Shown piece by piece: positions 23,967 to 39,566 of a stretch of 64,000 nucleotides of DNA. Each line of letters begins with the position of its first letter. The stretch's first letter is position 1. A model generated the notes under the pieces. The model was given only the letters and a program-made list of their open reading frames with translations. It was not told the DNA's origin and did not search any database. Origin of the DNA: Dehalococcoidia bacterium (GTDB lineage: Bacteria > Chloroflexota > Dehalococcoidia > Dehalococcoidales > RBG-16-60-22); the NCBI GenBank assembly GCA_011192005.1, contig DUFB01000065.1, positions 16,843 through 80,842 on the forward strand, in the 5' to 3' direction. Position numbers and translations under genes: made by a program.

Positions 23967-24506
23967 GTGGGTACCATTCCGGACGAGAAAGATACAACCA
24001 GCGAGGAAGCACAAAACCGGGAAAAAACGATAAAAGTCCTTCAGGGCTTCAGCAGAAAACGCTTCAACCTGATACCCATATTGCAGAAGGTTCAGGGCAG
24101 CCTGGGATACCTGCCTCATGAAGCCATGATTGAAATCGCCGAATACCTCGACATCCCCGCCATAGACGTGTATGGCGTGACGACCTTCTACAACCAGTTC
24201 AGATTAACACCGCCCGGCAAGCATTCCATAAGGGTATGTCTGGGCACCGCCTGCCACATGAAGGGCGGTTACATCACGCTGGACGCCTGGAAGAGACGGC
24301 TCCAAATCGAGCCCGGAGAGACCACCGCCGACCGTGAGTTCGACCTGGACACCGTGGCCTGCGTGGGCTGCTGTACGATGGCGCCGGTAACGGTAGTTGA
24401 CGATAAGCCGGAAGGAAGCGTCGAGCCAACCAGGGTAGATGGAATCCTGCTGGCTTTCGAGCAGGAGCGCGCCGGAAAGAAAGAAGTAGAGAGTGAAAGC
24501 GACTGA
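23967..24506 (+). CDS. NuoE/HydC-like [2Fe-2S] thioredoxin-fold subunit
   Basis: LIPILQKVQGSLGYLPHEA, VCLGTACHMKG, VACVGCCTMAP. Confidence 0.85.
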   Translation: MGTIPDEKDTTSEEAQNREKTIKVLQGFSRKRFNLIPILQKVQGSLGYLPHEAMIEIAEYLDIPAIDVYGVTTFYNQFRLTPPGKHSIRVCLGTACHMKGGYITLDAWKRRLQIEPGETTADREFDLDTVACVGCCTMAPVTVVDDKPEGSVEPTRVDGILLAFEQERAGKKEVESESD

Positions 24507-26400
24507 GAAAGCGGCGGTGATGGCTGCTTTCGAGAAAATAAAACGTAACGCCGCAGCCCACGGCGAAGAGTTAGCACGAGAAAAACCGGTAATTATGGTG
24601 GGCGCGGCCACGTGCGGTCGGGCGGCTGGTGCATTAGAAGTTCTCCAGACTTTCCGTGAAGAGGTAGAGAAACGAAAGGTCGACTGCCAGGTGATGGAAG
24701 TCGGCTGCATGGGACACTGCTACGCCGAACCGCTGGTAATCATCAGCAAGCCGGGTTACCCGCCGATATGCTACGGGTATGTCAATGCCGTCATAGCGGA
24801 AAGACTTGTAAAAGAATTTATCCTCGGGGATAATACCTGTCCGGAATTCGTACTGGCAGCACTGGAACCGAACGAACTCCTGCCCAGTTTCAGCGACTTT
24901 CCCCGCTCGCAATACGAGCAAAAAATCATCCTGAAGAACTGCGGGCATATCGACCCGGAGGATGTCAACCAGTACATCAATGCCGACGGCTATGCGGGCC
25001 TAGCCAAAGCCCTGCAAATGTCTCCCGAAGAAGTGACCGAAGAAGTGGTGAAATCGGGACTGAGGGGACGTGGCGGGGCAGGCTTCCCGACAGGACAGAA
25101 ATGGCGCTTATGCCGCGACGAACCAGGCAAGACCAGATACATCATCTGCAACGCCGACGAGGGTGACCCCGGGGCTTTCATGGACCGTTCCATCCTGGAA
25201 AGTGACCCGCATGCAGTGATAGAGGGGATGATAATCGGGGGATACGCCATCGGGGCGCGCTACGGATACATCTACGTGCGCGCCGAGTACCCGCTGGCGG
25301 TAAAACGAATGGAAACGGCGCTGAAACAGGCAAAAAAGCTGAACCTGCTGGGCAATCACATACTCGGGAACGGGTATTCGTTCGATATCAGGCTTTTCCA
25401 TGGCTCGGGGGCTTTCGTGTGCGGGGAGGAAACAGCCCTGATAGCCTCGCTAGAAGGCAGGATGGGCATGCCGCGTCATCGTCCACCTTATCCGTCTTCC
25501 CGCGGCCTCTTCAACAAGCCGACGGTGGTCAATAACGTCAAGACCCTCGCTTTCATACCTCATATCATCAGGAACGGAGTGGAATGGTTCAGGAGCATCG
25601 GGACGAAAGAGAGTCCCGGCACCGCCGTCTTCGCGCTGGCCGGTAAGATAGTAAATACGGGGCTTGTCGAGGTACCGATGGGCACGACGCTGCGGCAGAT
25701 TATCTTCGACGTGGGGAGCGGTATACCCAATGGCAGGCAATTCAAAGCAGTCCAGATAGGTGGGCCTTCCGGTGGCTGCCTGCCCGAGTCAGCCCTGGAT
25801 GTACCGGTTGATTACGATTCACTACACAAAGCAGGGGCGATGATGGGCTCGGGAGGTATGGTGGTACTCGACGAGGACGACTGCATGGTGGAGATAGCCC
25901 GTTACTTCCTCGAGTTTACCCAGCGAGAGTCCTGCGGTAAGTGTACCTTCTGTCGACTGGGTACCAAACAGATGCTGGAGATACTCGGGGAGTTTACCTT
26001 CGGCCAAGGCAGCCTGGAAGATATCGACAGGCTGGAACAGCTGGCGGAGGAAGTCCAGGCCGGTTCGCTCTGCCGGCTGGGGCAGACGGCCCCCAATCCA
26101 ATATTGACCACGCTCCGGTATTTCCGAAACGAATACGAAGCACATATCGAGCTAGGGAAATGCCCGGCACTGATGTGCCAGCACCTCATTGCCTACTACA
26201 TCCTGCCCGATAAATGCGAGCGTTCCTGCGACGCCTGTATCGGCACGTGCACCGTCGAGGCGATATCACCGAATAAAAAGAGAATCAAGGTCATCGACCA
26301 GGATAAGTGCGTCAAGTGCGGCACGTGCGTGACCGCCTGTCCTCCGCAGTACAACGCCATCGTGAAACTGTCGCCGCCGAGCGAGGTGCCGTCAAAATGA
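24493..26400 (+). CDS. NuoF/HydB-like NADH- and FMN-binding Fe-S subunit
   Basis: GLRGRGGAGFPTGQKW, ESCGKCTFCRLG. C-terminal CERSCDACIGTC and CVKCGTCVTACP ferredoxin motifs. N-terminal thioredoxin-like extension. Confidence 0.9.
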   Translation: MKATEKAAVMAAFEKIKRNAAAHGEELAREKPVIMVGAATCGRAAGALEVLQTFREEVEKRKVDCQVMEVGCMGHCYAEPLVIISKPGYPPICYGYVNAVIAERLVKEFILGDNTCPEFVLAALEPNELLPSFSDFPRSQYEQKIILKNCGHIDPEDVNQYINADGYAGLAKALQMSPEEVTEEVVKSGLRGRGGAGFPTGQKWRLCRDEPGKTRYIICNADEGDPGAFMDRSILESDPHAVIEGMIIGGYAIGARYGYIYVRAEYPLAVKRMETALKQAKKLNLLGNHILGNGYSFDIRLFHGSGAFVCGEETALIASLEGRMGMPRHRPPYPSSRGLFNKPTVVNNVKTLAFIPHIIRNGVEWFRSIGTKESPGTAVFALAGKIVNTGLVEVPMGTTLRQIIFDVGSGIPNGRQFKAVQIGGPSGGCLPESALDVPVDYDSLHKAGAMMGSGGMVVLDEDDCMVEIARYFLEFTQRESCGKCTFCRLGTKQMLEILGEFTFGQGSLEDIDRLEQLAEEVQAGSLCRLGQTAPNPILTTLRYFRNEYEAHIELGKCPALMCQHLIAYYILPDKCERSCDACIGTCTVEAISPNKKRIKVIDQDKCVKCGTCVTACPPQYNAIVKLSPPSEVPSK

Positions 26401-27041
26401 AGAACGTTACGCTGACCATAGACGGCAAGAAAATAACCGCCAGAGCCGGCGAGAAAATCCTATGGGCGGCGTTGGGAAATGATATCTATATACCCAACCT
26501 GTGCGCCATCAAAGAAAAACCGGAGCCGAACGCCGCCTGCCGCCTGTGCTTCGTGGAGATAGAGGGCGAGGATGAACCGGTGACCGCCTGCACCCGCGAG
26601 GTGGAAGATGGAATGGTCGTCAACACCAGGGGCGAAAAGGCATTAAAACTGGCGCAGGCGGGCTTCGAGCTGATAATGGCTTCCCATCCGGTCGATTGCG
26701 CCCATTGTGCCGCCAACGGAGCCTGCGAGCTCCAGGCGCTAGCCCGGCACCTAGGCTGCAAGCTCAAGACCAAACGATACCGACAGCTACTCCGCGACCT
26801 GCCGATAGACGATAGCAACCCCATGTTTACCCTCGACCCGAACAAATGTGTTCTCTGCGGGCGCTGCGTATGGGAATGTCACAAACGTAAAGAGACGGCG
26901 CTGCTGGGATTTGCCTACCGTGGCTTTAACAGAGTGATTACCACTTTTGCTTCGGAACCTATCGGCGAGAGGTGTCTTGACTGCAGGGAGTGCGTGGAGG
27001 TATGCCCGACCGGAGCGCTGGCGTTTAAGGATAAAAAATAA
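26397..27041 (+). CDS. NuoG/HydA N-terminal-like Fe-S subunit (2Fe-2S, His-ligated 4Fe-4S, 2x4Fe-4S) with no catalytic domain
   Basis: Start at the ATG at 26397 (ATGA overlap with the upstream stop). MKNVTLTIDGKKI..., HPVDCAHCAANGACELQ, CVLCGRCVWEC, CLDCRECVEVCPTGA. It stops after 214 aa. Confidence 0.8.
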   Translation: MKNVTLTIDGKKITARAGEKILWAALGNDIYIPNLCAIKEKPEPNAACRLCFVEIEGEDEPVTACTREVEDGMVVNTRGEKALKLAQAGFELIMASHPVDCAHCAANGACELQALARHLGCKLKTKRYRQLLRDLPIDDSNPMFTLDPNKCVLCGRCVWECHKRKETALLGFAYRGFNRVITTFASEPIGERCLDCRECVEVCPTGALAFKDKK

Positions 27042-27344: not shown

Positions 27345-27809
27345 ATGGAATTTACTCATGATAGTATCCGGAAATGGTTCTATAGTTATTTTGCGGAATT
27401 CACCGAATGTAACGGAAACCCCAAAAAAGTCCCGAACATGGAAAAATATTTTACTGAAGACCTTCAATTTATTTCATATATTCTGGGTGTTAAAAGACCT
27501 GATGACCGTGAAGGGCTGCTGAATACCATGGTACACCCGGGTCTCCTGGAGAGTCTCGAACCGGAAGAAATAGTAATTGATGAGAAGAATAAATCTGTTG
27601 CCGTTATTTTAAAGGTACAGTTCAAAGAAGAATCCACCGGCACAGTATTCCCGTTAAAGCATAATTGCGCTGTTTATAATCTTATCAATGACAAGAAGGG
27701 CAATATGAAGATAAACAAAATAACATACTTTACCGAGCACCGTTCCCCTGATGAGCCTGATATGAAAAGCCTCATGAAAAAGTACCGTCAACAAGCGCTT
27801 GGTTCTTAA
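27345..27809 (+). CDS. Hypothetical protein, possibly NTF2/SnoaL-like fold
   Basis: 154-aa ORF with GGAGG RBS. Fold guess rests on size and alternating beta-like C-terminal pattern only. Confidence 0.35.
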   Translation: MEFTHDSIRKWFYSYFAEFTECNGNPKKVPNMEKYFTEDLQFISYILGVKRPDDREGLLNTMVHPGLLESLEPEEIVIDEKNKSVAVILKVQFKEESTGTVFPLKHNCAVYNLINDKKGNMKINKITYFTEHRSPDEPDMKSLMKKYRQQALGS

Positions 27810-27920: not shown

Positions 27921-28817
27921 GTGGCCAGAAAAAAGAAAGAGCTCAAGTACGAGAAATATTTTCTCAGGGACGTAATAACTGATGGACTGAGAAAGGAATG
28001 GGGAGGACAGGCGATATCAGCCGGGCGGGGACACGATGATATCATACCGGCGAATGCCAGGGCAGTCCCGGCAATAACTGTCATCAGGAAACCATACATG
28101 TTCCATGAGCCGACTCATAAACACATGTTTACAGAGTACTTTATCTTCTTCGGCTCAAACCCGATGGACATGCATGAATTTGATGCTGATGTGGAGTACA
28201 CTTTCGGAGCGGAGCGCGAGAAGCATGTCATCAACCGCCCGACAATAGTCATCGCCGCACCGGGGGTTTACCACTGCCCGCTGAACTACGCGAGAGTCGG
28301 CAAGCCCTTTTACTGCCTGGAAATGTTCATGACAACGGGATACTCCGGAGTTGACCTAGGTGAAGACCTGAACGAAATAAGGGTACCCGAACCAAGCTAC
28401 AACAGGTATTTCATCCAGGATGTTATTAAAGACAACAAATGGGGTGGCGAAGGTATAGGACTATCCGCGGTACCGGAGCATATTATCCCGGCCGGAGCGA
28501 GGATAACCCTGGGACTAACGGCGGTCAGGAAGCCGTATATGTTCCATGCACCGACCCATAAACACAATTTCACCGAGTTCTTTTACTTCTTCGGTTCAAA
28601 CCCAATGGATATGAAGGAATTCGACGCCGAAATAGAGTTCTACTTCGGGGAAGAGAAAGAAAAGCATATCATCAATAGCCCGACCGTTGTGGTGATTCCA
28701 CCCGGGATATTCCACTGCCCGCTGAATTACGTAAAAGTGAATAAGCCCTTCTACTGTCTGGAAATGTTCATGACCTCGAAATATACCGGGACGGATTTAG
28801 TACCGCAGATGCGGTAA
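27921..28817 (+). CDS. Bicupin paralog A (internally duplicated metal-cupin protein)
   Basis: Both halves align by eye. First half: KPYMFHEPTHKHMFTEYFIFFGSNPMDMHEFDADVEYTFGAEREKHVINRPTIVIAAPGVYHCPLNY. Second half: KPYMFHAPTHKHNFTEFFYFFGSNPMDMKEFDAEIEFYFGEEKEKHIINSPTVVVIPPGIFHCPLNY. This is a cupin-like H-x-H-x3-E ... P-x-G-x2-H pattern. Confidence 0.7.
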   Translation: MARKKKELKYEKYFLRDVITDGLRKEWGGQAISAGRGHDDIIPANARAVPAITVIRKPYMFHEPTHKHMFTEYFIFFGSNPMDMHEFDADVEYTFGAEREKHVINRPTIVIAAPGVYHCPLNYARVGKPFYCLEMFMTTGYSGVDLGEDLNEIRVPEPSYNRYFIQDVIKDNKWGGEGIGLSAVPEHIIPAGARITLGLTAVRKPYMFHAPTHKHNFTEFFYFFGSNPMDMKEFDAEIEFYFGEEKEKHIINSPTVVVIPPGIFHCPLNYVKVNKPFYCLEMFMTSKYTGTDLVPQMR

Positions 28818-29027: not shown

Positions 29028-29720
29028 TTGTTTGTTGCAGAGCATCTCCTGCGAGGCATCAAAGGAGCAACCGTGGGGGAGTATGTGAATCTCGGTCAGA
29101 TCGTCATCCTGAATGGTGCACCTCTAGCCGGGAAGTCAAGCATAGTCAAGGTTATTCAAGACACCTTCGAGGGCGTCTGGATGAATCTTGGTGTGGATGT
29201 GTTTGCAAGAGGCGTCACACCGAAGAGATACCAACCTGGAATTGGCCTGCGTCCGGGACCAGGCTTGAGATTCGGAGGTGATGTTCCAGAGTTGGAGCCG
29301 CTCATACCAAGATTCTACGCAGCTATGTACGAGTCGATCGCTGCACACAGCAGGCTAGGTCTTAACGTTGTCACCGACGTCGGTCACCATGGGGCTATCC
29401 ACTCGGGGATCCTGCCGAACTGCGCTCGCCAGCTTATGGGTTTGCCGGTTCTCTTCGTTGGTGTTCGCTGCCCAATCAAGGAGATCATGAAACGACGTAG
29501 TCAAGCTGACCGCGAAAGCGGGTACATTGTGGGAACGAATGACGAATTAGTACCGCCGCCGGTCGTCCTATGGCAGGAAGAGGTCCACAAGCCTGGCATC
29601 TACGACCTGGAGGTGGATACGTCTCTACTGAGTCCTAATGACTGTGCTAAAGAAATCAGGCAGCGGCTGATGGAAGGGCCACCTGGTACAGCGTTCCAGC
29701 AGCTCGCTGAATTAGCATAG
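29028..29720 (+). CDS. Chloramphenicol-phosphotransferase-like P-loop kinase family protein
   Basis: VILNGAPLAGKSS P-loop near the N-terminus, about 200-aa length. The start is probably an internal GTG near 29072. Confidence 0.55.
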   Translation: MFVAEHLLRGIKGATVGEYVNLGQIVILNGAPLAGKSSIVKVIQDTFEGVWMNLGVDVFARGVTPKRYQPGIGLRPGPGLRFGGDVPELEPLIPRFYAAMYESIAAHSRLGLNVVTDVGHHGAIHSGILPNCARQLMGLPVLFVGVRCPIKEIMKRRSQADRESGYIVGTNDELVPPPVVLWQEEVHKPGIYDLEVDTSLLSPNDCAKEIRQRLMEGPPGTAFQQLAELA

Positions 29721-30024: not shown

Positions 30025-30234
30025 TTATGCTTTCACAATGGCTTTTGCCGGGCACCACCATTCGTGGGAAACGCAGACTCCGCAATCCGTGCATTTATCC
30101 GGATCAATTCTGGTTGTGTACAGGTTCAGTCCATCAAAATCGGTAACCTGTTCGTCCACGACGATTGCTCCCTCCGGGCATTCGTCGATGCAAATGCCGC
30201 ACTTAAGACAACTATCTGTAATCTTATAGGCCAT
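30025..30234 (-). CDS. Mini 2x[4Fe-4S] ferredoxin with extended second Cys motif
   Basis: 69 aa. CLKCGICIDECP is canonical. CTDCGVCVSHEWWCP has C-x2-C-x2-C-x6-CP spacing. Confidence 0.85.
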   Translation of the reverse strand: MAYKITDSCLKCGICIDECPEGAIVVDEQVTDFDGLNLYTTRIDPDKCTDCGVCVSHEWWCPAKAIVKA

Positions 30235-30278
30235 ATTATACTCCTTTTAACCCTAAGGAAATGATTTTCCCGCTCTGC

Positions 30279-30857
30279 TTATCGTGTATAACCCTCGTCA
30301 GGCCACATTCTATCCCAGGGTGTTGCTTCTCTCAGTTCTCTGGGTAATAGCTGCCGGAAGGATTTTTCCGTATGCACGGGTCCTTGATTGACTTCAATGA
30401 ATATCCAGGGTCGTGTTGTTTTCAATGGTTTCCACGGGGAATGGATGAAATTGGGCGGAATCCAGATTACGGTAGATTTATTGAACACGTGTTTTTCCAT
30501 TTCCGGTCCCATATACATCTGAACCTCGGCACCCAGATCCATCGGATCGTCCGGGTTTGTACCGATGTGAAACAGGAGCTCGGCATCTTTGTGTATGTGC
30601 GGGGGATGACCGGCCATCTCATGCGAAGACACTATATCCTGGAGGTCGCCGTACTGGTTCTTCCAGAGGTCACCTTTGCGTCTAACACCGCTATAAAAAC
30701 CATCTTTTTCATCGAAAGGGAACATCCAGTGAACCAGATAAAAGTAGCTACCTTTGGCCACGGCGTCATCCATGCGAGCGATTACCGGCCGGCGTTCAGT
30801 CTCTATTATAGGCGTCGTAATACCGTATTGAATAAAATACTTATCATATTTGCCCAT
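30279..30857 (-). CDS. Mono-cupin paralog B
   Basis: 192 aa. MGKYDKYFIQ N-terminus, as in the paralog A repeats. HPPHIHKDAELLFHIGTNPDDPMDLGAEVQMYMGPEMEKHVFNKSTVIWIPPNFIHSP. Confidence 0.65.
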   Translation of the reverse strand: MGKYDKYFIQYGITTPIIETERRPVIARMDDAVAKGSYFYLVHWMFPFDEKDGFYSGVRRKGDLWKNQYGDLQDIVSSHEMAGHPPHIHKDAELLFHIGTNPDDPMDLGAEVQMYMGPEMEKHVFNKSTVIWIPPNFIHSPWKPLKTTRPWIFIEVNQGPVHTEKSFRQLLPRELREATPWDRMWPDEGYTR

Positions 30858-31184
30858 TGTCTTTCTTCTCCTTTACTATTTATTTCCAATTAAGATATTA
30901 GCCTGGCAATTGATGATTTTATCTTGTTATTAACCTCCTTGTTTAGAATTATGTACCGACATCCAAATGCAAGATTCAACTTAACTTGCTGATAAAAAGG
31001 AGCTTGCTTAACTAATTTTGCTCAATTTCCGTCTTCATTTTACAATAATTTCGTATTGAGAAAAAGTTCGAAGAAGGGGATTATATTTTTTTGGCTAATG
31101 GATAGCTAACCAACGATTTTTTTTCAAATCCTTATCAAGGTCATTCTTTTTGTGAATGACAGTATTATCAAATAAGCCAGCTTC

Positions 31185-31214
31185 TTGATAGGATAGTCGT
31201 TAAGGGAATATAAT
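31185..31214 (+). promoter_or_regulatory. sigma70-like promoter for the PpiC-domain gene
   Basis: TTGATA (31185-31190), 18-nt spacer, TATAAT (31209-31214). Confidence 0.45.
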
Positions 31215-31304
31215 CAAATACGTACGCATAACTTTTTCGGCAGCAGGATAAAGCTATCGTAGAGCGACCTTCAGTATAACAATTACATATGAGGGGTTTT
31301 ATAA

Positions 31305-33110
31305 ATGTCAAAGAAACATCGAACCAGCAAGAACGAGCGTTTTATATCCAAACGCCAGGACTCCGGAAAACAGCGGCAGAAGCGCATACGCAATATTATT
31401 ATCTCCGTTGTCCTGGTAGTCGTAATCGCCGCTGTAAGTGTAGGCGTGTGGGCTTACTTCAATTATCAGGTTATACCGTATAACCAAACGGCCATAAGGA
31501 TCAACGACGTCACTTTCGATCTAGGATATTACATCAACATGCTCAAAATTTATTATGGAAATGTCTCGCCGTCTACCCTGGAAAATTATACAAGCTATGG
31601 TAGACAGGAGATTGAGAAGCTAGCAGGTTATGTGGAACAACAGATTATACAGAACGAGATTATCAAACAAGGTTCCTTAGCTTTTGGAGTCCAGATTGAA
31701 CGTAGTCTAATCGAAGACATTCTTAATGAATCAGATATGCCGGTCACTGACGAACGTATTGATATCCTGACGGCGCAAGAATTGGTTGAAAAGCAGGTTC
31801 CACCAACCCAGCAGCAGGTGAACCTGCAAATCATGTTACTTGAAAGCGAAAGTGTTGCGCAGGAGGCAATAGCCAGGTTGGAGTCGGGTGAGTCATTCAA
31901 CCAGGTGGCCAGTGATCTCACGAAGGTCACTGATATCATGCTCCTTGAAGGTGATATGGGATGGGTAACCGCGCGGGAGATTGATCTCAAGATGGGTAGT
32001 ACGAAGTTAGGCAACACGGTTTTTGGGTCCAATCCTAATGTATTAAGCAGTCCGGTTTACGATGATATGGCAACCAAAGCGTTTGGATACTGGGTCATGA
32101 AGGTTATAGAGAAGAATGATGCTACTGATACAACTTCGGCTTCAATACGTCTTCAAGGTATCTTACTGGGAAGTGAACAGGAAGCTTACGATATAATCGA
32201 AAAACTGAATGCCGGTGCAGACATAGATGAACTGGCTAAGGAATTTTCAGAACTGTCAGGTGCCGAAAATAGTGGAGCCCAACAGTTCTGGATGGCAGAA
32301 GACGAAGCTATCGAAAGCTTTCAGGTTCTATTCGATCTGCCGATAAACGGAATCAGTGAGCCGATAAGCGATAATCAGACTGAGACGAAGGGCGGATACT
32401 GGGTATTCAATGTACTAGAAAAGGATGATAACCGGGAGTTGACTGCTAACCAGCAGAACATACTTATAAATGATTTTCTTGTAAGGTGCTCTGCCGAACT
32501 GGAGAAAGATCCCGGATATATCGTGGAGAGCCTTTTAACCGAAGAAATGGTTGTCTCAGCAATCAATAAGGCTGTACTGGCACAGGGAGAAGGCTCGGTT
32601 TTAATCCGTACGGGTTCGCTACCCTATGGTGAAGCAAAAGTAAGCTACTACTGCCAGCTCGAAGCATATGGTAACCAAAAAGGTAATACCTGGTACATAA
32701 CCGAAGGTAGATTGCCTGAGGGATTAAGTCTGGACGGGTCTGCAGGCGTGATATCGGGGGCTCCTAAATTGGCCGGCGGTTACAGCATCACGTTAGTAGT
32801 CGACAGTGGCCTTCACTATCATCAACAGGACTATACAATACGGGTGTACCTGCCGGTTTCAGTGACGACCAGTTCTTTACCCGAAGCTCAGGTAGGGGTT
32901 GACTACGCAGCAATACTTGAGGCATTCGGCGATATTTCCTATTATAAGTGGTCAATTATTGATGGTAAATTACCTGAAGGCTTAGAACTAGATGGCACTC
33001 TAGGATATATATACGGAACGCCAACCACTGCCGGTACCTATGACTTTACGTTACAGGTAGATGATGGTCTGGGAACAGCAACACAGACATTGACTATAGT
33101 TGTGCGATAG
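31305..33110 (+). CDS. Membrane-anchored parvulin (PpiC)-type peptidyl-prolyl isomerase with two C-terminal Ig-like repeats
   Basis: N-terminal TM helix. Parvulin-like GDMGWVTAREI and KGGYWVFNVLE. Two repeats: LPEGLSLDGSAGVISGAPKLAGGYSITLVVDSG and LPEGLELDGTLGYIYGTPTTAGTYDFTLQVDDG. Confidence 0.7.
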   Translation: MSKKHRTSKNERFISKRQDSGKQRQKRIRNIIISVVLVVVIAAVSVGVWAYFNYQVIPYNQTAIRINDVTFDLGYYINMLKIYYGNVSPSTLENYTSYGRQEIEKLAGYVEQQIIQNEIIKQGSLAFGVQIERSLIEDILNESDMPVTDERIDILTAQELVEKQVPPTQQQVNLQIMLLESESVAQEAIARLESGESFNQVASDLTKVTDIMLLEGDMGWVTAREIDLKMGSTKLGNTVFGSNPNVLSSPVYDDMATKAFGYWVMKVIEKNDATDTTSASIRLQGILLGSEQEAYDIIEKLNAGADIDELAKEFSELSGAENSGAQQFWMAEDEAIESFQVLFDLPINGISEPISDNQTETKGGYWVFNVLEKDDNRELTANQQNILINDFLVRCSAELEKDPGYIVESLLTEEMVVSAINKAVLAQGEGSVLIRTGSLPYGEAKVSYYCQLEAYGNQKGNTWYITEGRLPEGLSLDGSAGVISGAPKLAGGYSITLVVDSGLHYHQQDYTIRVYLPVSVTTSSLPEAQVGVDYAAILEAFGDISYYKWSIIDGKLPEGLELDGTLGYIYGTPTTAGTYDFTLQVDDGLGTATQTLTIVVR

Positions 33111-33338
33111 CCCGGGTAAAACCTGGCATCAACAACAGCAAGGACAACAGACCATAAATTTTTACAGTTTAACACTTAAATGAGGTGATACCCCGGAGAA
33201 TGTGAAAAGTACCGAAAAATGATGCTAATTCCTCAACCGGTGCTTTTCTGCAAAAACCAAAATACAACCGGGTTATATACAACATTCGGAGAGATAAATA
33301 ATTAGCTTCAATTAACTGCGAATTGAGCTTAAAATAAC

Positions 33339-33368
33339 TTGACAAATGTGGATTTTTTGTTGTAATAT
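33339..33368 (+). promoter_or_regulatory. sigma70-like promoter for the ABC importer operon
   Basis: TTGACA (33339-33344), 18-nt spacer, TAATAT (33363-33368). It leaves a leader of about 190 nt. Confidence 0.45.
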
Positions 33369-33562
33369 TCTGACACCCTGATTGTTTCCACAGACGTAAT
33401 TTTGAAAGTAAATTTCAATCGCAGTAAAATGGTTAATAACCAGACATAGTGCACTTTCCATTATATAAGTACGATGACAATCCAGAGGAGGTGTATAATG
33501 ACATGATTAGAAGGTTTAAAAATATTCTTCATAATTCAATAAAGGAGGTATAAGAGAAAATA

Positions 33563-35173
33563 ATGAAGAAATATCTGATTCCAGCTTTGGCGGTTATTTT
33601 ATTAGCCAGTATGATTCTCAGCAGTTGCGGTGAGCCTGAACCTACAACAACACAACCGACAACAGCACCGACATCTACACCTACCACCACACCTACCACT
33701 GGACCCGTCTACGGCGGTAAATTTACCATGGTACGCAATACAGGCATCACCGAGGTTGGTGCTCCCATGGACCTGCAGGGTGGCTACGGCGGTGTGACTT
33801 ATCCTCTCTGGTGCCCTGTCGTTGAGACTTTATACATTGTTGATGCCGCAGACCGGATCGTGCCCGTACTGGCCGAGTCCGTGGAAGTAGCATCGGACGG
33901 ACTGTCTGTCGTGTTCAAACTGAGACAGGGAGTCAAGTTCCACGATGGTACGGACTTCAATGCTGAAGCGGTGAAAATTAACCTAGAAACTGTAATTGCC
34001 GCCGAGGTTCCTGGTTCTACCCCCCTGAAGAGCATTGAATCTTTCGATATTATTGATGACCATACCCTAAAAATTAACCTGAAAAACTTTGACGCTACCT
34101 TTCTGATGAGCCTGGCCCAATCGGGTGTTGGTGTCATGATATCCCCCGCTGCCCTGACCAAAGAGACGACGCCGGAAAATGCCGGAAAAGATCACCTGGT
34201 GGGCACCGGGCCTTTCCTGTTTGATAGCTGGGCTCTAGACCAGTACATCATCATGAAAAAGAATCCCAACTACTGGCAGGAAGGCAGACCTTACCTCGAT
34301 GAGATTGAAATCCGCAATATTACGGACTACACCATTTCAATCATGGCTTTCAAGGCCGGGGAAGTGGACATGGTTGAAAGTATTGACCCTGCTCAATATA
34401 ACGAATTGAAGGAACAGGGTTATACCGTCGGTATTCCAGAAGGCCTGGCTTTCGTCTTTAGCTTCCGAACCGCCAATGCCGACCCCGCCTCACCTTTCTC
34501 TGATAAAAAGGTACGGGAAGCCCTGTGGTATTCTGTTGACAGGGAAAGCCTGGTTTTCGGTCTGGGTAAAGGCACCTATAATGTGGCGAACCAATTAGCC
34601 GCGCCGCAGCAGGGGTGGTATATTGAGGATTACCCCGCCCGACCATATGATCCAGATAAGGCCATGGAGTTGCTGGCTGATGCTGGCTTTGAAGGTGGTT
34701 TTAAGACCATTTTACACGGTGATATCCGCGGACGTCAGGATGACCTGGTCGCTCTCCAGACTTACTTCGGTGCGATTGGCATAGAGTGCGAGCTGGATAT
34801 TGCCGACGTTGCTCGATCGAGTACCTTCGGCACCGAGGGCTTCGATGGCATTTTCCAGAGCGGTTTCCCCAACTGGTCTTCCTTCTCCAGCTGGATGAAT
34901 GTCTGGCTTAGCCCTACAGCGACCTACCCCACCATGAAGTTCCCAGATAACTGGACAGAAGACTGGCAGGCTGTCAAGACTGAGCCAGATTACGATAAAC
35001 GGATGGCTCAAATGAAGGCCCTCCTTAAAGTAGTCTATGATGAAGCCCTGGTAATTCCCTGGATGTGGGATGCTCCACGCTACTGTATAAACTCCAAAGT
35101 CCATGATCTGATGTGGGATGCCGTGGACATCAATGGCTACTTCGATCCAGTCAATGTCTGGAAAGAGAAATAA
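33563..35173 (+). CDS. ABC transporter substrate-binding lipoprotein, family 5 (peptide/nickel/opine type)
   Basis: Lipobox LSSCG, Thr/Pro-rich tether TTTQPTTAPTSTPTTTPTTGP, then family-5 SBP-like sequence (GGKFTM..., NPNYWQEGRPYLDEIE). Confidence 0.85.
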   Translation: MKKYLIPALAVILLASMILSSCGEPEPTTTQPTTAPTSTPTTTPTTGPVYGGKFTMVRNTGITEVGAPMDLQGGYGGVTYPLWCPVVETLYIVDAADRIVPVLAESVEVASDGLSVVFKLRQGVKFHDGTDFNAEAVKINLETVIAAEVPGSTPLKSIESFDIIDDHTLKINLKNFDATFLMSLAQSGVGVMISPAALTKETTPENAGKDHLVGTGPFLFDSWALDQYIIMKKNPNYWQEGRPYLDEIEIRNITDYTISIMAFKAGEVDMVESIDPAQYNELKEQGYTVGIPEGLAFVFSFRTANADPASPFSDKKVREALWYSVDRESLVFGLGKGTYNVANQLAAPQQGWYIEDYPARPYDPDKAMELLADAGFEGGFKTILHGDIRGRQDDLVALQTYFGAIGIECELDIADVARSSTFGTEGFDGIFQSGFPNWSSFSSWMNVWLSPTATYPTMKFPDNWTEDWQAVKTEPDYDKRMAQMKALLKVVYDEALVIPWMWDAPRYCINSKVHDLMWDAVDINGYFDPVNVWKEK

Positions 35174-35218
35174 ACCATAAATATGCGGTTATGGTAATTA
35201 CGTGATGAAAGGGAGGTT

Positions 35219-35269
35219 CTCCGTCCCCGGGGAGAAAAAACAACCGGGGGCGGAGTCCTTTCTTTTCTT
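35219..35269 (+). terminator. Strong intrinsic terminator between the SBP and permease genes
   Basis: 12-bp stem CTCCGTCCCCGG (35219-35230) / CCGGGGGCGGAG (35244-35255, one G-U pair), followed by TCCTTTCTTTTCTT. Confidence 0.7.
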
Positions 35270-35686
35270 ACGGTGCATATTGCACTGGTTAGAAAAACCG
35301 GGGTGGAAAGAGGCCATATCCATGACTTAATATTTACCGGTCTGCCATGGATGGCGCAAGGTATAACCGAATATAAATCATCCTGAAAACGATCCGGCAA
35401 ATCAGACAGAATAAAAAAACTGCCACGTGCACCGAAACTAGATTTGGCAGGATAAATATGGTACAAATTACTTGGAGATTATTTTACATATCGAGTTTTT
35501 TGTCCCTTAAACGTAACAACTCCTCAACCCTAAAATGACCTGGCTGTAATACAAAAAACAAAGAAACACTAAAGACATTAACAAATTAGAACAGGGTAAA
35601 TGCTATCCTGAACGCTAAATAGAATAAGTTAGCGGAAACAAGAGACTTCCTTGGTAGTCAAATAATCCCTCCGTGGAGGATATGAA

Positions 35687-36643
35687 ATGACAGCGTATAT
35701 CATACGCCGTTTATTGTTAGGAGTGATTATCCTCTTGCTGGTTACCCTGCTGGTCTTTCTGGCGATGCGTCTGTTACCAGGTGACCCGCTGATGATTTTC
35801 GTTTCTCAGTTCCAGACTGAATCCTTCACCCCTGAGCAGATAGAAGAGCTGCGCCGTGAATTTGGCTTGGATAGATCTCTTCCCATGCAGTATATCAACT
35901 GGCTCGGTGATATATTGCGAGGAGATATGGGTAAATCCATTATTATGGGTCAGGACGTGGGGTATTTGATATCCACCAGGCTGCCGGTAACGGTTTATTT
36001 CGGTGTCATGTCTTTTGTCGTGAGTGCATTTTTAGGCGTCATTTTCGGCGTAATCTGTGCTCTAAGAAGGGGTAAATGGCTTGATTCGGTAGTTACTGTT
36101 CTGGCTAATATCGGCATTACGGTGCCTGCTTTCTGGATTGGAATATTATTGATGTATCTATTCTCGCTGACGTTACACTGGTTACCTACCAGCGGTTATG
36201 TAGCTCCCACAGAGAATCTGGCACAAAGTCTACGTGCAGCAATCATGCCTGTTATCTGCCTTTCTCTATTTTCGGTGGCTGCACTGACCCGTCAGACCCG
36301 CTCTGCCATGCTTGAGGTTGTCAGCCAGGATTATATCCGGACCGCCTGGGCTAAGGGTTTACGTGAGCGGGTAATAGTTCTCCGGCATACCATAAAGAAT
36401 GCCATGATACCCGTTATTACCATCCTGGGCTTACAGGTTGGGTTGATCTTCGGGGGATCAGTCCTGATAGAAACCGTCTTCAATATTCCGGGAATGGGAC
36501 GGCTATTAGCCAATTCCCTATTTTCTCATGATTATCAGATAGTCCAGGCCGGGACACTGGTCATTGCGGTGGTAGTGGTGCTTTCCAACCTGATAGTCGA
36601 TATTTCCTACGGCTGGTTTGATCCACGCATAAGGTACGGTTAA
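35687..36643 (+). CDS. ABC transporter permease (DppB/OppB-like)
   Basis: 318 aa, six TM helices. N-terminal MTAYIIRRLL and the DYIRTAWAKGL EAA-loop motif. Confidence 0.9.
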   Translation: MTAYIIRRLLLGVIILLLVTLLVFLAMRLLPGDPLMIFVSQFQTESFTPEQIEELRREFGLDRSLPMQYINWLGDILRGDMGKSIIMGQDVGYLISTRLPVTVYFGVMSFVVSAFLGVIFGVICALRRGKWLDSVVTVLANIGITVPAFWIGILLMYLFSLTLHWLPTSGYVAPTENLAQSLRAAIMPVICLSLFSVAALTRQTRSAMLEVVSQDYIRTAWAKGLRERVIVLRHTIKNAMIPVITILGLQVGLIFGGSVLIETVFNIPGMGRLLANSLFSHDYQIVQAGTLVIAVVVVLSNLIVDISYGWFDPRIRYG

Positions 36644-36654
36644 GGAGTGCGTGC

Positions 36655-37560
36655 ATGCAGAATAATGTGACCAATTCAGTGGAACCGACGGCATGGTCTG
36701 AAGTCGCACCGGCCCAGAGCGAGTTCCGCCGGGTGATAAGGGTATTTTTCAGCCGCAAGATTGCGGTAGTCGGTTTGGTACTGATTGTCTTATTGGTTAT
36801 AACGGCCATATTTGCTCCATGGCTGGCACCCTATCCTCCTAATGACATCGACATGGCTAACACTCTGGCCAAACCCAGCGGTGACCACTGGCTGGGAACT
36901 GATAATCTGGGAAGAGATGTTCTGAGCCGCATTATTTATGGCGCCCGTACTTCTTTAATAATCGCTGTCGGCGCGACCGCGATGTCCGTCGTACTGGGCG
37001 AGATTTTAGGTCTGATTGCCGCTTATTTTGGCGGAATCGTTTTTCAAATTATAATGCGTTTCATCGATGCATTAATGGCAGTTCCGATGCTTCTAGTTGC
37101 TCTGATTATGGCTTCCCTGCTGGGTGGCGGGGTGAAAAACGTAATTCTGGCTCTTGGCGTCGGTATGCTGTCCGTCCACGCACGAATGATGTGCGCTCAG
37201 GCGCTCAGCGTTAAGCAGAATGATTATATTCTGGCCGCCAGGTCGATGGGAATGGGCGATATGCGCATGATGATTCAGGAAATTGTGCCCAATGCTTTCC
37301 CGGCTCTGGTGGTCGTCGCGACCGTAGGTCTGGGGGCAGTTATTCTGGCAGAAGCCGGCCTGAGCTTTCTGGGCGTGGGTGTAATGCCTCCTTATCCGGC
37401 CTGGGGCAAGATGATCAGCGACGGTTACAAATATATACTCTCCAACCCTGCATTGGCATTTTCTCCCGGCATAGCCATAATGCTGGTTGTCTTTGGCTTT
37501 AATATGATGGGGGACGGGCTCCGTGATGCCTTGGATCCCAGGTTAAGAGGAGTTGTATAA
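36655..37560 (+). CDS. ABC transporter permease (DppC/OppC-like)
   Basis: 301 aa. IFAPWLAPYPPN, HWLGTDNLGRDVLSRIIYGAR, YILAARSMGM. Confidence 0.9.
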   Translation: MQNNVTNSVEPTAWSEVAPAQSEFRRVIRVFFSRKIAVVGLVLIVLLVITAIFAPWLAPYPPNDIDMANTLAKPSGDHWLGTDNLGRDVLSRIIYGARTSLIIAVGATAMSVVLGEILGLIAAYFGGIVFQIIMRFIDALMAVPMLLVALIMASLLGGGVKNVILALGVGMLSVHARMMCAQALSVKQNDYILAARSMGMGDMRMMIQEIVPNAFPALVVVATVGLGAVILAEAGLSFLGVGVMPPYPAWGKMISDGYKYILSNPALAFSPGIAIMLVVFGFNMMGDGLRDALDPRLRGVV

Positions 37561-37593
37561 AGTAGAGGACCATAAGAATAGCGAGAAGTAGAT

Positions 37594-38586
37594 ATGTCTG
37601 TTCTTTTAGATGTTAAGAACCTGAGAACCCATTTTCATACGCACCGCGGGTTGGTTAAAGCTGTGGATGGGGTCTCTTTCCATATTAATGAGAAAGAGAT
37701 AGTAGGGCTGGTTGGAGAAAGCGGGTGCGGGAAATCGGTAAGCATGCTTTCCGTGATGCAACTAATAGCGATCCCACCGGGGAAGATAGTAAGTGGTAGC
37801 GCCATGTTTGATGGCCATGATTTATTAAAATATAAACCCAAAGGCGATGAAATGAGGGCGATACGTGGCGCCAAGATAGCCATGATATTTCAGGAACCGA
37901 TGACATCGCTTAATCCGGTGTTAACTATTGCCCGTCAGGTTACCGAAACGCTGGAACTGCACCTTAAAATGGACACTCAGACTGCCAGAAAAAGGGCAGT
38001 TGAGCTACTCAAACTGGTCGGTATCCCTGAGGCTGAAAGCCGCCTTGATAACTACCCGCACCAGTTTAGTGGCGGCATGAGACAGAGAGTGATGATCGCC
38101 ATCGCCCTCTCATGCAATCCCAAAATACTCATCGCCGATGAGCCGACCACGGCAGTAGATGTTACCACACAGGCTCAACTGCTGGAGCTGATGCAGGAAA
38201 TGGTCAACCGGTTTAATACTTCACTTGTCATCGTAACGCATAATCTCGGTGTCGTGGCCCGCTACGCCGATAGAATATACGTAATGTATGCCGGCCGTAT
38301 CGTAGAATCGGGCCTTTCGGAAGATATATTCTTAAGACCTCTTCATCCTTATACCATCGGACTCCTTAAATCTGTTCCACAATTAGGGCAAACGAAAAGC
38401 GACAGGGAACTGGTCCCTATCTCCGGTCTGCCGCCAAATCTGATTGATATGCCCCAGAACTGCGCATTTTTACCGAGATGTTCTTATCATAAAGAGAGGT
38501 GCCGGCTCGAACCCTGGCCTGAGCTTCATGCTGTAGGTGCACAGCATTACGTATCCTGTTATGTTGATACCCGGGAGACATCATGA
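37594..38586 (+). CDS. ABC transporter ATP-binding protein (DppD/OppD-like)
   Basis: GESGCGKS Walker A, FSGGMRQR signature, [11 protein letters not shown] Walker B. C-terminal Cys-rich oligopeptide-type extension. Confidence 0.9.
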
Positions 38587-39566
38587 ACGCCCATCAAAAT
38601 AACAATCTAATTGAAATAAAAAACCTGAAAATGTACTTTCCTATCACCAAAGGATTGTTACGTCGTAAGGTCGGTGACGTTAAGGCTGTAGATGACATCA
38701 GTTTTGATATCAAGCAAAATGAAACCCTCGGCCTAGTAGGAGAAAGCGGATGCGGTAAGACCACGACCGGACGGTGTATCTTACGTCTGTATCAACCCAC
38801 GTCAGGAAGTATAGTGTTTAATGGAACCGATATTTCCTCTATACCTGAGAAGCAGGTAAGGCCTCTCCGACGTCACATGGGCGCTATTTTCCAGGACCCT
38901 TACGGTTCTCTTAACCCAAGACAAAGCGCACGCACTATTGCCGGAATGCCGCTGATAGTTCATCATATGATAGACAAAAAAGATTTAGATGATAAAGTAG
39001 CCGAGCTCTTCAATCTTGTGGGACTGGATTCAAGTATGATGGATCGTGTCCCTCATGAATTCAGTGGTGGCCAACGGCAACGTCTGGGAATTGCCCGTGC
39101 TCTGGCCTGTAACCCATCGCTAATAGTCTGTGATGAGCCAATTTCAGCCCTTGATGTTTCTATACAAGCTCAAATAATCAACTTACTTGAAAAGCTCCAG
39201 AAGAGCCTGGGACTTACCTATCTCTTCATTGCGCATGACCTTTCCGTGGTACAGCATATCAGCGACCGCGTAGCGGTTATGTATCTGGGCCGTATCGTAG
39301 AGATAGCGAATTCAAAGGAACTCTACCAGAGTCCACTGCATCCGTATACCAAAGCACTGCTGTCGGCAGTACCCGTGCCAAATCCCGTAAGAGAAAGAGA
39401 GCGCGTACGAATTGTCTTGAAAGGAGAGGTTCCCAGCCCCGCCCATCCACCGACTGGTTGCCACTTTCATCCGCGGTGCTCTATTGCATCTGCCGAATGT
39501 GAAGAATTCATACCACCTCTGAATACTATCAGCGGCACCCATCAGGTATCTTGTCTGAAGGTATGA
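38583..39566 (+). CDS. ABC transporter ATP-binding protein (DppF/OppF-like)
   Basis: [32 protein letters not shown] overlap with the upstream gene. Confidence 0.9.

Follow-up and report, generated by a model that had tools for sequence, protein, structure and literature searches.

Unannotated cupin genes paired with small ferredoxins of extended cysteine spacing in Dehalococcoidia and other anaerobic lineages

Few enzyme folds are as diverse in function as the cupins, and almost all that we know of their redox chemistry comes from enzymes that use oxygen. The known cupin enzymes with a His/His/Glu/His ligand set mostly use O2 or carry out non-redox chemistry, and we know of no precedent for ferredoxin-driven catalysis among them. 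Oxalate decarboxylase (OxdC), Ni-quercetinase (QueD) and acireductone dioxygenase have no dedicated ferredoxin gene that we are aware of, and pirins, as far as we know, are not encoded with a private ferredoxin. Rieske oxygenase and bacterial P450-ferredoxin systems use [2Fe-2S] or [3Fe-4S] ferredoxins, require O2 and are systems of aerobes. All characterised two-cluster ferredoxins known to us act as electron wires; the Alvin-type proteins (Allochromatium vinosum) have the arrangement Cx2Cx8Cx3CP, with an insertion between the second and third cysteines, and a C-terminal helix. The bicupin pirins Pir1 and Pir2 of Bacteroides fragilis bind PFOR and Zn-ADH and change the fermentation output (PMC11304471). 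Our full-text literature search found neither a description of a cupin-ferredoxin pair nor a described relative, and the pirin-PFOR paper was its one useful lead.

Two such pairs occur in the window, a 64,000-nt stretch of DNA from a Dehalococcoidia bacterium, where a mono-cupin (cupin A) precedes the ferredoxin FdA and a bicupin (bicupin C) precedes the ferredoxin FdB (Table 1). The ORFs, strands and gaps of 44 and 77 nt in the original prediction are exact to the base for both pairs. Cupin A and FdA are arranged like an operon, 44 nt apart and each with its own ribosome-binding site, that of FdA being of the AGGAG type; counts from a promoter and terminator scan around this pair were not above shuffled expectation. 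A stretch of about 25 aa in cupin A, at residues 50-80 or so, is an insertion specific to its lineage. The ABC importer upstream of bicupin C comprises an SBP_bac_5 binding protein at 33563-35173, identified by a Pfam scan of that protein only, with two permease-like and two ATPase-like ORFs judged from sequence, and is a possible substrate-uptake system. In the 376-aa protein downstream of FdB the Fer4 domains are the sole recognised domains. Its homologues (74% and 60% identity) adjoin bicupin C-FdB in L166/L167 and L168, and it is a candidate third component or regulator. The 154-aa ORF at 27345-27809 was considered as a SnoaL/NTF2-like protein and ruled out, having no Pfam match and falling outside the SnoaL-like cluster; homologues of this ORF lie beside cupins in L146 and L005.

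Table 1. Coordinates of the cupin, ferredoxin and neighbouring genes in the window
Feature	Position	Strand	Remarks
Cupin A (mono-cupin), 192 aa	30279-30857	minus	Unannotated family; predicted metal ligands H87, H89, E93, H139
FdA (Fd1), 69-aa predicted 2x[4Fe-4S] ferredoxin	30025-30234	minus	44 nt downstream of cupin A
Bicupin C, 307 aa	39670-40593	plus	C-terminal domain with HxHxxxE...H; N-terminal domain without His ligands
FdB (Fd2), 62-aa predicted 2x[4Fe-4S] ferredoxin, GTG start	40671-40859	plus	77 nt downstream of bicupin C
376-aa protein	41035-42165	plus	C-terminal 2x[4Fe-4S] domain (~273-331); Cys-rich unannotated N-terminal part
Bicupin paralog, 298 aa	27921-28817	plus	HxHxxxE...H in both domains; without adjacent small ferredoxin
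Bicupin paralog, 363 aa	42446-43537	minus	HxHxxxE...H in both domains; without adjacent small ferredoxin
Bicupin paralog, 373 aa	43588-44709	minus	Tandem with the 363-aa paralog
Opp/Dpp-type ABC importer	33563-39566	plus	Directly upstream of bicupin C

The two ferredoxins had been described as paralogs with non-canonical cysteine spacings, and both points are borne out. They share 41% identity within the window (BLASTP E ~1e-11 to 1e-12), and their motifs are CLKCGICIDECP (x3) and CTDCGVCVSHEWWCP (x6) in Fd1 and CIQCHACIWNRICP (x5) and CTGCGTCYDQEEYFCP (x7) in Fd2; neither protein has the canonical CxxCxxCxxxCP in both motifs. The cysteines are C9, C12, C15, C19, C48, C51, C54 and C61 in Fd1 and C9, C12, C15, C21, C40, C43, C46 and C54 in Fd2. 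Throughout the FdA subtype, the second motif reads CxxCxxCx6CP with an invariant E-W/Y-W preceding the Cys-Pro, and a 10-residue insertion separates the two halves of the protein, while the FdB motifs are CxxCxxCx5CP (IWNRI) and CxxCxxCx7CP (YDQEEYF). The E-aromatic-aromatic-Cys-Pro insertion is derived, common to FdA and FdB, and missing in their nearest canonical relatives. Both proteins matched Pfam Fer4, Fer4_6, Fer4_7 and Fer4_9 above the gathering score, and scored 50.9 and 50.5 bits for NCBIfam FdxA_fam (NF058577) against an equivalog cut-off of 65. The FdB subtype is rare: 5.8 billion proteins yielded 10 clusters, after which the matches are canonical ferredoxins. Extended spacing is not common in ordinary ferredoxins: among the 136 Fe-S motifs outside FdA and FdB in the fetched loci and the window, 128 have the x3 spacing, three have x2 and five have x4, all five x4 cases being the first motif of FdA variants. 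In this DNA, FdA and FdB alone have spacings of x5 to x7.

We examined the linkage of cupin A and FdA in both directions. The FdA subtype lies directly downstream in 77 of the 79 species-representative genomes that have a mono-cupin homologue. The reverse search was seeded solely on the ferredoxin motif E[WY]WCPA[KQ]A, and a full cupin was found 13-109 nt upstream in 70 of 74 metagenome contigs with room upstream. Because it recurs at these rates in genomes and metagenome contigs alike, the cupin-ferredoxin arrangement is far beyond chance. A full cupin A ends less than 200 nt upstream of 137 out of 158 FdA genes, and most of the others lie where a contig breaks off. In every case the ferredoxin comes after the predicted metal-binding cupin domain. 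Together with the confinement of the extended spacings to FdA and FdB, this two-way linkage upholds the proposal that the pairing is specific and that the ferredoxin is not a generic one; neither of the two outcomes named beforehand as contradicting it was found.

The pair is conserved across phyla and domains, occurring in Chloroflexota, Acidobacteriota, Desulfobacterota-like bacteria, Spirochaetota and Planctomycetota as well as in Bathyarchaeia. Peat and estuarine sediment are source environments of the metagenomes. Its adjacency could in principle be a gene order inherited within one clade, with the ferredoxin serving as a generic electron carrier. The strong contribution of Chloroflexota (60 of the 79 genome loci with cupin A) would fit such an origin, as would one Dehalococcoidales subclade that keeps a long gene order including housekeeping genes. 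However, the flanks are entirely different in Acidobacteriota, Desulfobacterota-like bacteria, Spirochaetota, Planctomycetota and Bathyarchaeia, and cupin A-FdA is kept under wholly changed neighbours in Dehalococcoidales, Acidobacteriota, Desulfobacterota-like bacteria, Spirochaetota, Sedimentisphaerales and Bathyarchaeia. Moreover, the ferredoxin subtype essentially never occurs without the cupin, fusions of the two exist, and the generic ferredoxins in the same DNA have the x3 spacing. Inheritance of gene order around a generic carrier is thus already contradicted, and we regard it as barely credible.

The second pair and the gene fusions lead to the same association. In four lineages FdB comes directly after a homologue of bicupin C, and in a fifth it lies within the same cupin cluster; L169 ends 135 nt past the bicupin and is uninformative for FdB linkage. 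Two independent sources (P0312, 374 aa, and P0401) carry in-frame fusions in which bicupin C is joined to FdB by a Lys/Arg-rich linker, and one cupin A-FdA read-through ORF of 258 aa is found in L058. The distance matrices of cupin A and FdA are correlated (r = 0.43, Mantel p = 0.001, 115 unique pairs). Tight pairing and fusions prove association, not electron transfer, and the ferredoxin might accordingly be a structural or maturation factor, for instance a stabilising small subunit or a carrier of metal or Fe-S clusters, whose own clusters stay idle in turnover. We consider such a role very unlikely, as the eight cluster-ligating cysteines are invariant across 75 FdA sequences and all FdB sequences, two-cluster ferredoxins transfer electrons in all characterised cases known to us, and the cupins lack a conserved cysteine that could accept a cluster (none able to receive one was found in the cupin A alignment).

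The association does not extend to every cupin of the family, which numbers 860 representatives. Five paralogs are present in the window, and a small ferredoxin lies beside only two of them. A 301-aa sister subfamily of bicupin C likewise has no adjacent small ferredoxin. Given these three window paralogs and the sister subfamily, ferredoxin dependence is not a property of the whole cupin family. Conversely, a second cupin lies downstream in 66 of the 122 FdA genes with room downstream, and in L126 and L149 the ferredoxin stays only with the downstream cupin; FdA may therefore serve more than one cupin. The original prediction had described the two pairs as a duplication. This holds for the ferredoxins, which are paralogous, but one partner is a mono-cupin and the other a bicupin, and the predicted metal-binding domain is all that they have in common.

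The cupins themselves are recognised by structure and not by existing family models. Neither single sequences nor profiles of cupin A found a match in Pfam, NCBIfam or PDB sequences; none of 21 members matched Pfam at E up to 1, and all 304 homologues are named 'hypothetical'. The searches of Pfam gave no Pirin match for the window cupins and no Cupin_1 match for bicupin C, and the 363-aa paralog had a sub-threshold Cupin_2 match (E 0.064). The AlphaFold2 model of cupin A has a mean pLDDT of 71, exceeding 80 in the barrel. In the model of the P0312 fusion the bicupin part is mostly above 90, and the ferredoxin part falls below 40 and so carries no docking information. Foldseek searches with the cupin A and bicupin models retrieved only cupins and bicupins at probability 1.0, the top match being OxdC (E ~1e-11 at probability 1.0 for the bicupin model, E ~1e-3 for the mono-cupin model); these matches were generic and included no specific functional analogue. 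A cupin A profile aligned ligand for ligand to the C-terminal, metal-site-bearing domain of bicupin C with 99.1% probability. Membership in the cupin family is hence recognisable from the modelled fold and the invariant predicted metal site alone, and the 'cupin' label assigned earlier stands at the level of fold and motif, with no Pfam or NCBIfam family behind it.

Cupin A carries both cupin motifs, G83-x3-H87-x-H89-x3-E93-x5-G99 and P134-P-N-F-I-H139, at a spacing slightly unlike the consensus G(x)5HxH(x)3-4E(x)6G / G(x)5PxG(x)2H(x)3N. The corresponding site in the C-terminal domain of bicupin C is H215-x-H217-x3-E221 with H267 (P0312 numbering), and its N-terminal domain has QTQVCDYDQ where the His ligands would stand. 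The His/His/Glu/His ligands do not vary among 21 cupin A sequences or among 28 sequences of the bicupin C family, the latter count being 28 as P0401 is without its N-terminal part. Cupins with three His and one Glu typically bind and activate O2, and oxalate decarboxylase and Ni-quercetinase are the closest folds. A module for detoxification of O2 or reactive oxygen might be envisaged on this basis, in which O2, superoxide or peroxide would be reduced at a cupin metal centre with electrons from the ferredoxin. The hosts, lineages of anaerobic sediment and peat, could make use of such a module, and the pair is small, self-contained and apparently horizontally mobile. Nevertheless, our neighbourhood census found no classical oxidative-stress genes beside the pair, which lies within catabolic clusters together with transporters and several cupin paralogs, and two differentiated pairs with further paralogs in one locus are hard to justify for one small oxidant. 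Oxidant removal is for these reasons an improbable function.

The gene neighbourhoods bear on whether the cupins are enzymes at all. The Pfam-confirmed neighbours of cupin A-FdA include Zn-ADH, a POR/IOR-type 2-oxoacid oxidoreductase and AOR, and in addition an OYE-type reductase, a CoA-transferase and SnoaL-like proteins. In a large Dehalococcoidales subclade the pair adjoins Zn-ADH and the POR/IOR-type oxidoreductase, and the cupin clusters of many other loci come with ABC importers, which vary in type. An IOR-type oxidoreductase as the true partner of FdA was rejected, since the IOR neighbourhood is clade-restricted and the cupin-ferredoxin pair is not. The cupins could also be redox- or iron-sensing regulators that bind other proteins in the manner of pirins, with the ferredoxin as redox signal input or with the pair modulating the nearby IOR, AOR or ADH. 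The pirins Pir1 and Pir2 of B. fragilis set a precedent (PMC11304471), the Zn-ADH and POR/IOR-type genes in the Dehalococcoidales subclade recall their targets, and the 67% mean column identity of cupin A across phyla fits multiple protein contacts. Against this, the cupins match neither Pirin nor any other Pfam family, the ADH/IOR neighbourhood occurs in one clade only while the cupin-ferredoxin pair is universal, and the complete His/His/Glu/His site is invariant. In addition, a single locus may carry up to five or six paralogs, with ABC importers, CoA-transferases and reductases next to them, which looks like diversification of enzyme substrates. A regulatory role therefore appears unlikely. 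Many paralogs beside transporters and dehydrogenases are typical of catabolic enzymes.

The pairs are best read as ferredoxin-dependent, mononuclear-metal cupin enzymes of anaerobic catabolism. We consider it probable that cupin A-FdA and bicupin C-FdB are paralogous two-component enzymes in which the dedicated ferredoxin is an obligate, docking redox partner, and we infer from the genomic evidence that the two proteins form a complex and exchange electrons. Low-potential electrons would come from ferredoxin-linked enzymes elsewhere in the cell, candidates being the 2-oxoacid:ferredoxin and aldehyde:ferredoxin oxidoreductases near the pairs of relatives and the NuoE/NuoF/NuoG-N-like NADH module in the window. 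The dedicated ferredoxin would load these electrons onto its two clusters and dock on the cupin via the Glu-aromatic-aromatic insertion before the last Cys-Pro (spacing x6/x7), with the 10-residue loop of FdA as a putative second, subtype-specific docking element. Electrons would then pass singly, either to the His/His/Glu/His site where the cupin is predicted to bind its metal or to a substrate at that site. The outcome might be an oxygen-independent reductive change of a small organic compound imported by the neighbouring ABC transporters; the opposite direction, oxidation of the substrate with the ferredoxin as acceptor, would be equally possible.

A broader proposal, plausible to us if not quite favoured on balance, is that these proteins are the first members of an unrecognised class of O2-independent cupin metalloenzymes with a private 2x[4Fe-4S] ferredoxin. 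The Glu-Trp-Trp and Glu-Tyr-Phe residues would act in docking and as a relay, and the paralogs of the class, mono-cupins as well as bicupins, with or without a ferredoxin, would reduce sedimentary and peat organics in uncultured Dehalococcoidia, Acidobacteriota, Desulfobacterota and Bathyarchaeia. A cupin family hard-wired to a low-potential ferredoxin and restricted to anaerobes would, if true, suggest a new kind of metal-centred reductive catalysis. A conserved set of 'hypothetical' genes would thereby gain a function as well; uncultured Dehalococcoidia and Bathyarchaeia of the subsurface and of peat, the carbon metabolism of which is little understood, have this set in abundance. FdA and FdB would offer a clean natural case of partner specificity through short insertions at the Cys-Pro position of a minimal two-cluster ferredoxin, and these insertions are of interest for engineering electron-transfer specificity. 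The P0312 and P0401 fusions are ready-made constructs for structural work.

Compared with known ferredoxins, FdA and FdB resemble the clostridial-type 2x[4Fe-4S] proteins in their small size (55-70 aa), MAYKI start, eight cysteines in two motifs and acidic character, and their nearest relatives outside the subtypes are canonical ferredoxins of 55-58 aa. Unlike the clostridial type, they have the last Cys-Pro displaced by the Glu-aromatic-aromatic insertion (x6/x7), an x5 first motif in FdB and a 10-residue insertion between the halves of FdA, and they are tied to one gene partner instead of being general carriers. As in Alvin-type ferredoxins, an insertion inside the second Cys motif marks a functional subclass of two-cluster ferredoxins. 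Here, however, its place is after the third Cys and before the Cys-Pro (Cx2Cx2Cx6CP or Cx2Cx2Cx7CP), and there is no C-terminal extension, the proteins ending 8 residues past the Cys-Pro.

The cupins share the double-stranded beta-helix and the His-x-His-x3-Glu ... His set with OxdC, Ni-quercetinase QueD and acireductone dioxygenase, but are about 10-14% identical in sequence to these metal-dependent cupins and bicupins and match no cupin model in Pfam. OxdC has two Mn sites and belongs to Cupin_1, whereas bicupin C has one intact site and 10-13% identity to it in the structural alignment. Cupin A and bicupin C further differ from all three enzymes in occurring in anaerobes with a dedicated ferredoxin gene. 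Genes similar to those of the 2-oxoacid:ferredoxin oxidoreductases and Zn-ADH to which the iron-binding bicupins Pir1 and Pir2 are tied in B. fragilis (PMC11304471) adjoin cupin A in many Dehalococcoidales; in contrast to pirins, the cupins described here have no sequence or Pfam relation to that family, and their conserved partner is a ferredoxin and not an oxidoreductase. In organisation, the pairs resemble the Rieske and P450-ferredoxin systems, in which one operon encodes a metalloprotein catalyst together with its own small ferredoxin, the two being sometimes fused, but the pairs combine a low-potential-type 2x[4Fe-4S] carrier with a cupin fold and are found in anaerobic hosts.

In the ORF list of the window, both cupin-ferredoxin pairs have coordinates identical to those of the original prediction, and a Shine-Dalgarno-like sequence precedes each gene of the first pair. 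The two small ferredoxins, FdA following the mono-cupin (cupin A) and FdB following the bicupin (bicupin C), are both of the Fer4 type by Pfam and share 41% identity (E about 1e-11 to 1e-12 in a search against the window's own ORFs), while their scores with the NCBIfam equivalog FdxA_fam (50.9 and 50.5 bits) are below the cut-off of 65. The Cys motifs of FdA are CLKCGICIDECP and CTDCGVCVSHEWWCP, with three and six residues between the third Cys and the final Cys-Pro (x3 and x6), and those of FdB are CIQCHACIWNRICP (x5) and CTGCGTCYDQEEYFCP (x7). A small ferredoxin adjoins only two of the five cupin-family paralogs in the window (at 27921, 30279, 39670, 42446, and 43588).

Genes of the two cupin-ferredoxin pairs and of their surroundings in the window
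Feature	Position	Strand	Remarks
Mono-cupin (cupin A)	30279-30857	-	192 aa (ORF list)
Ferredoxin FdA	30025-30234	-	69 aa; 44 nt past cupin A
Bicupin C	39670-40593	+	307 aa
Ferredoxin FdB	40671-40859	+	62 aa; GTG start; 77 nt past bicupin C
376-aa protein	41035-42165	+	C-terminal 2x[4Fe-4S] domain, the only recognisable part
NuoE-like, NuoF-like, and short NuoG-N-terminal-like trio	23967-27041	+	upstream of bicupin
154-aa protein	27345-27809	+	directly upstream of bicupin 27921-28817
Chloramphenicol-phosphotransferase-like (CPT family) kinase	29028-29720	+	Pfam E 1e-46
601-aa protein	31305-33110	+	PpiC rotamase and He_PIG/PKD Ig-like domains; precedes ABC importer
Opp/Dpp-type importer	33563-39566		precedes bicupin C
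SCP2 sterol-carrier-like protein	45189-45599	-	adjoins two tandem bicupins

Scanning one genome per GTDB species with the cupin A alignment yielded 79 loci, including 60 from Chloroflexota (mostly Dehalococcoidales), 11 from Acidobacteriota, five from Desulfobacteraceae, 'Deltaproteobacteria' or Thermodesulfobacteriota, two from Spirochaetes or Leptospirales, and one from Sedimentisphaerales; the top locus (L001, 97% identity) belongs to a Dehalococcoidaceae MAG and probably shows where the window comes from. At 77 of these loci the cupin stop is followed within a few tens of nucleotides by the start of a ferredoxin of about 70 aa, with the spacing CxxCxxCx6CP (x7 in a few) and a motif ending in E-W/Y-W-C-P. 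Among the 77, two genes run off the contig just past the first ferredoxin residues, Ns mask another, and L058 encodes cupin and ferredoxin in one frame as a read-through ORF (258 aa); the ferredoxin is truly missing only in L006 and L079. In the reverse direction, a metagenome scan with the ferredoxin peptide E[WY]WCPA[KQ]A alone gave 80 loci, 74 of them with upstream room, and 70 of the 74 have a strong cupin A domain whose end lies 13-109 nt upstream of FdA. Two others retain only a 30-bit cupin remnant (L098, L102), and two have no upstream cupin A and another cupin just downstream (L126, L149). Thus the adjacency expected for other genomes is found from either gene. When all loci are pooled, a full cupin A lies less than 200 nt upstream of 137 of 158 FdA genes, the rest being mostly truncated at contig ends, and the distance matrices of the two proteins are correlated (r = 0.43, Mantel p = 0.001, 115 unique pairs).

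In three Bathyarchaeia MAGs, cupin A and FdA are 60 nt apart and flanked by a DUF169 gene and an MFS transporter, whereas in one Dehalococcoidales genome the pair is flanked by an SDR and a corrinoid methyltransferase cluster; what is conserved is therefore a two-gene module, not a larger inherited block. That the adjacency reflects mere synteny within a clade is contradicted by these flanks, by the recovery of the upstream cupin from the ferredoxin side, and by the fusions and exclusive Cys spacing described below. The 192-aa variant of cupin A, which has an inserted stretch of about 25 aa, and its FdA have 80-85% identity between Acidobacteriota MAGs (L002-L004, L072) and the window or L001 (Dehalococcoidaceae), which suggests either recent horizontal transfer of the module between phyla or binning errors. 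Cupin B, as we term a further mono-cupin (about 165 aa, no Pfam match; L016, L018, L020, L024, L030, and many more, such as L036 7374-7871), is absent from the window. It lies downstream of FdA in 66 of the 122 loci with downstream room and is the only cupin retained with FdA in L126 and L149, so FdA may serve two cupins.

A complete count of CxxCxxCx(n)CP motifs covered the window and all fetched loci. Apart from FdA and FdB, n is 3 in 128 motifs, 2 in three, and 4 in five, each of the five being the first motif of an FdA variant; values of 5 to 7 are confined to FdA and FdB. Extended spacing as an ordinary feature of ferredoxins would have spoken against the original prediction, and in this set it is not one. 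Compared with its nearest canonical relatives, FdA has 10 additional residues between its halves and three before the last Cys-Pro, and FdB has two in motif 1 and four in motif 2. Common to both is a Glu-aromatic-aromatic sequence just before the final Cys-Pro; in FdA, E58 and W60 are invariant and residue 59 is W or Y. In clostridial ferredoxins the cysteine of the final Cys-Pro is a ligand of the N-terminal cluster, and the insertion would therefore remodel the surface around that cluster. We infer that it is a partner-recognition element, and possibly an aromatic relay. A structural or maturation role of the ferredoxin is unlikely, since the cluster ligands are invariant.

The cupins match no described family: the five in the window have no hits among Pfam and NCBIfam models, 21 cupin A orthologues have none in a Pfam scan at E up to 1, and a cupin A profile search of PDB sequences returned nothing meaningful. 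In a large protein database, cupin A has 304 relatives, every one named 'hypothetical', with uncultured Dehalococcoidales, other Chloroflexota, Spirochaetes, and Bathyarchaeia or Nitrososphaerota as their sources. An exhaustive HMM search over 1.84 billion cluster representatives found only 860 family members with an E-value cut-off of 1e-3, a number that drops to 288 at 1e-10 and to 29 at 1e-30, hence this branch of the superfamily is small. The mean column identity of cupin A across phyla is 67%, and its invariant residues include H87, H89, E93, and H139, arranged in the two motifs classical for cupins. With Foldseek, cupin A as modelled by AlphaFold2 (mean pLDDT of 71; above 80 in the barrel) retrieves only generic cupins (OxdC, Ni-quercetinase, phosphomannose isomerase; E about 1e-3), and the model of the bicupin C family (residues 1-290 mostly above pLDDT 90) retrieves bicupins, namely OxdC and seed globulins (E about 1e-11, TM of about 0.45, identity of about 10%). 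In profile-profile comparison, cupin A aligns ligand on ligand with the C-terminal domain of bicupin C (99.1% probability), and the N-terminal domain of the latter has lost its His ligands, so that in both pairs the ferredoxin gene follows a single intact, predicted metal-binding cupin domain. One database protein (P0024, 324 aa) has tandem cupin A-like domains on one polypeptide with both metal sites intact and appears to be a snapshot of how the bicupins of the family arise.

FdB is rare, with 10 clusters carrying the x5 and x7 signature CIQCHACIWNRxCP ... CYxxEEYFCP in a search of 5.8 billion proteins; beyond them E-values rise sharply from 1e-19 to 1e-9 and the matches are ordinary x3 ferredoxins. 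FdB lies directly 3' of a bicupin C homologue in the window and its own lineage (L001, L082, L083), in a Spirochaetes MAG (L025; 69% identity for bicupin C and 61% for FdB), in L166 and L167 (82% and 71%), and in L168, where the upstream bicupin C copy is 53% identical and frameshifted. In L170 the two genes are about 2.3 kb apart within one multi-cupin cluster. In two proteins from different sources (P0312, 374 aa, JGI; P0401, an ENA fragment), bicupin C and FdB are fused in frame through a Lys/Arg-rich linker. No ferredoxin follows the 301-aa sister subfamily of bicupin C (about 60% identity). Both pairs share one locus in the window's lineage, the Spirochaetes MAG, and L170. In the closest relatives (L001 2897-5397, L082, and L083) the two pairs are neighbours in the same orientation, in the order cupin A, FdA, 80-aa ORF, bicupin C, FdB. 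The window has them on opposite strands, 9 kb apart, with the ABC importer in between (30025-40859), which points to a recent rearrangement or inversion. Counting the window, the 376-aa protein recurs beside bicupin C-FdB in three lineages, and L166 (10867-12003), L167, and L168 (about 4720-5797) all carry it, with weak HTH/MarR matches of the N-terminal fragments in L168; it may act as a third component or as a redox-sensing regulator.

The neighbour census was crude, with cluster representatives checked by Pfam. A large Dehalococcoidales subclade has the gene order POR-gamma-like, POR/IOR-alpha-like 2-oxoacid oxidoreductase fused to Fer4_20, one to four SnoaL-like genes, Zn-ADH, cupin A, FdA, and a second cupin of about 165 aa. 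The fusion in this oxidoreductase (L126 3-2105 and the rest of census cluster 3) is unusual, the C-terminal Fer4_20 leading into a GltD/NfnB-like NAD(P)-binding region. Outside this subclade, the neighbours include bicupins, Opp- or Liv-type ABC importers, aldehyde:ferredoxin oxidoreductase, OYE-type reductase, family III CoA-transferase, SDRs, LuxR regulators, and corrinoid methyltransferase systems. In the window, the members of the Nuo-like trio are NuoE-like (2Fe-2S_thioredx), NuoF-like (635 aa, with a two-cluster domain added at the C-terminus), and NuoG-N-terminal-like (244 aa; Fer2_4, NADH-G_4Fe-4S_3, Fer4); no hydrogenase or molybdopterin catalytic subunit accompanies it, and it looks like a stand-alone NADH-linked electron-input module. 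The CPT-like kinase gene separates a bicupin from the cupin A-FdA pair and is convergent with FdA. The 154-aa protein has no Pfam or PDB match and homologues next to cupin genes in L146 (3132-3614, 70%) and L005 (1507-2004, 48%); a SnoaL-like assignment was rejected, as it falls outside the SnoaL-like cluster of other loci. The SCP2 protein may point to a hydrophobic substrate. The gene context fits ferredoxin-linked anaerobic catabolism without naming the substrate.

In B. fragilis, pirins bind PFOR and Zn-ADH (PMC11304471), and by analogy the cupins may be pirin-like regulators, but they have no sequence relation to pirins and the paralog expansion beside transporters argues for enzymes. A module for O2 or ROS detoxification is possible, although the census revealed no stress-gene context and two differentiated pairs would be hard to explain. 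The best-supported reading is a two-component enzyme formed by a cupin and a dedicated two-cluster ferredoxin. The ferredoxin would dock on the cupin and exchange single electrons with its putative His/His/Glu/His metal centre or with a bound substrate, the electrons coming from, or passing to, the ferredoxin-linked oxidoreductases of the cell. The specific partnership originally proposed is supported by the two-way linkage, the fusions, and the exclusive spacing; docking of the partners, electron transfer and its direction, the metal, and the substrate are inferred.

In the papers searched, we found no mention of a cupin paired with a private ferredoxin. The cupin fold, the two-cluster ferredoxin, and the logic of an enzyme with its private ferredoxin are already known; new is their combination, in which an orphan cupin family of anaerobes is joined to a dedicated 2x[4Fe-4S] ferredoxin with a new insertion that displaces the Cys-Pro.
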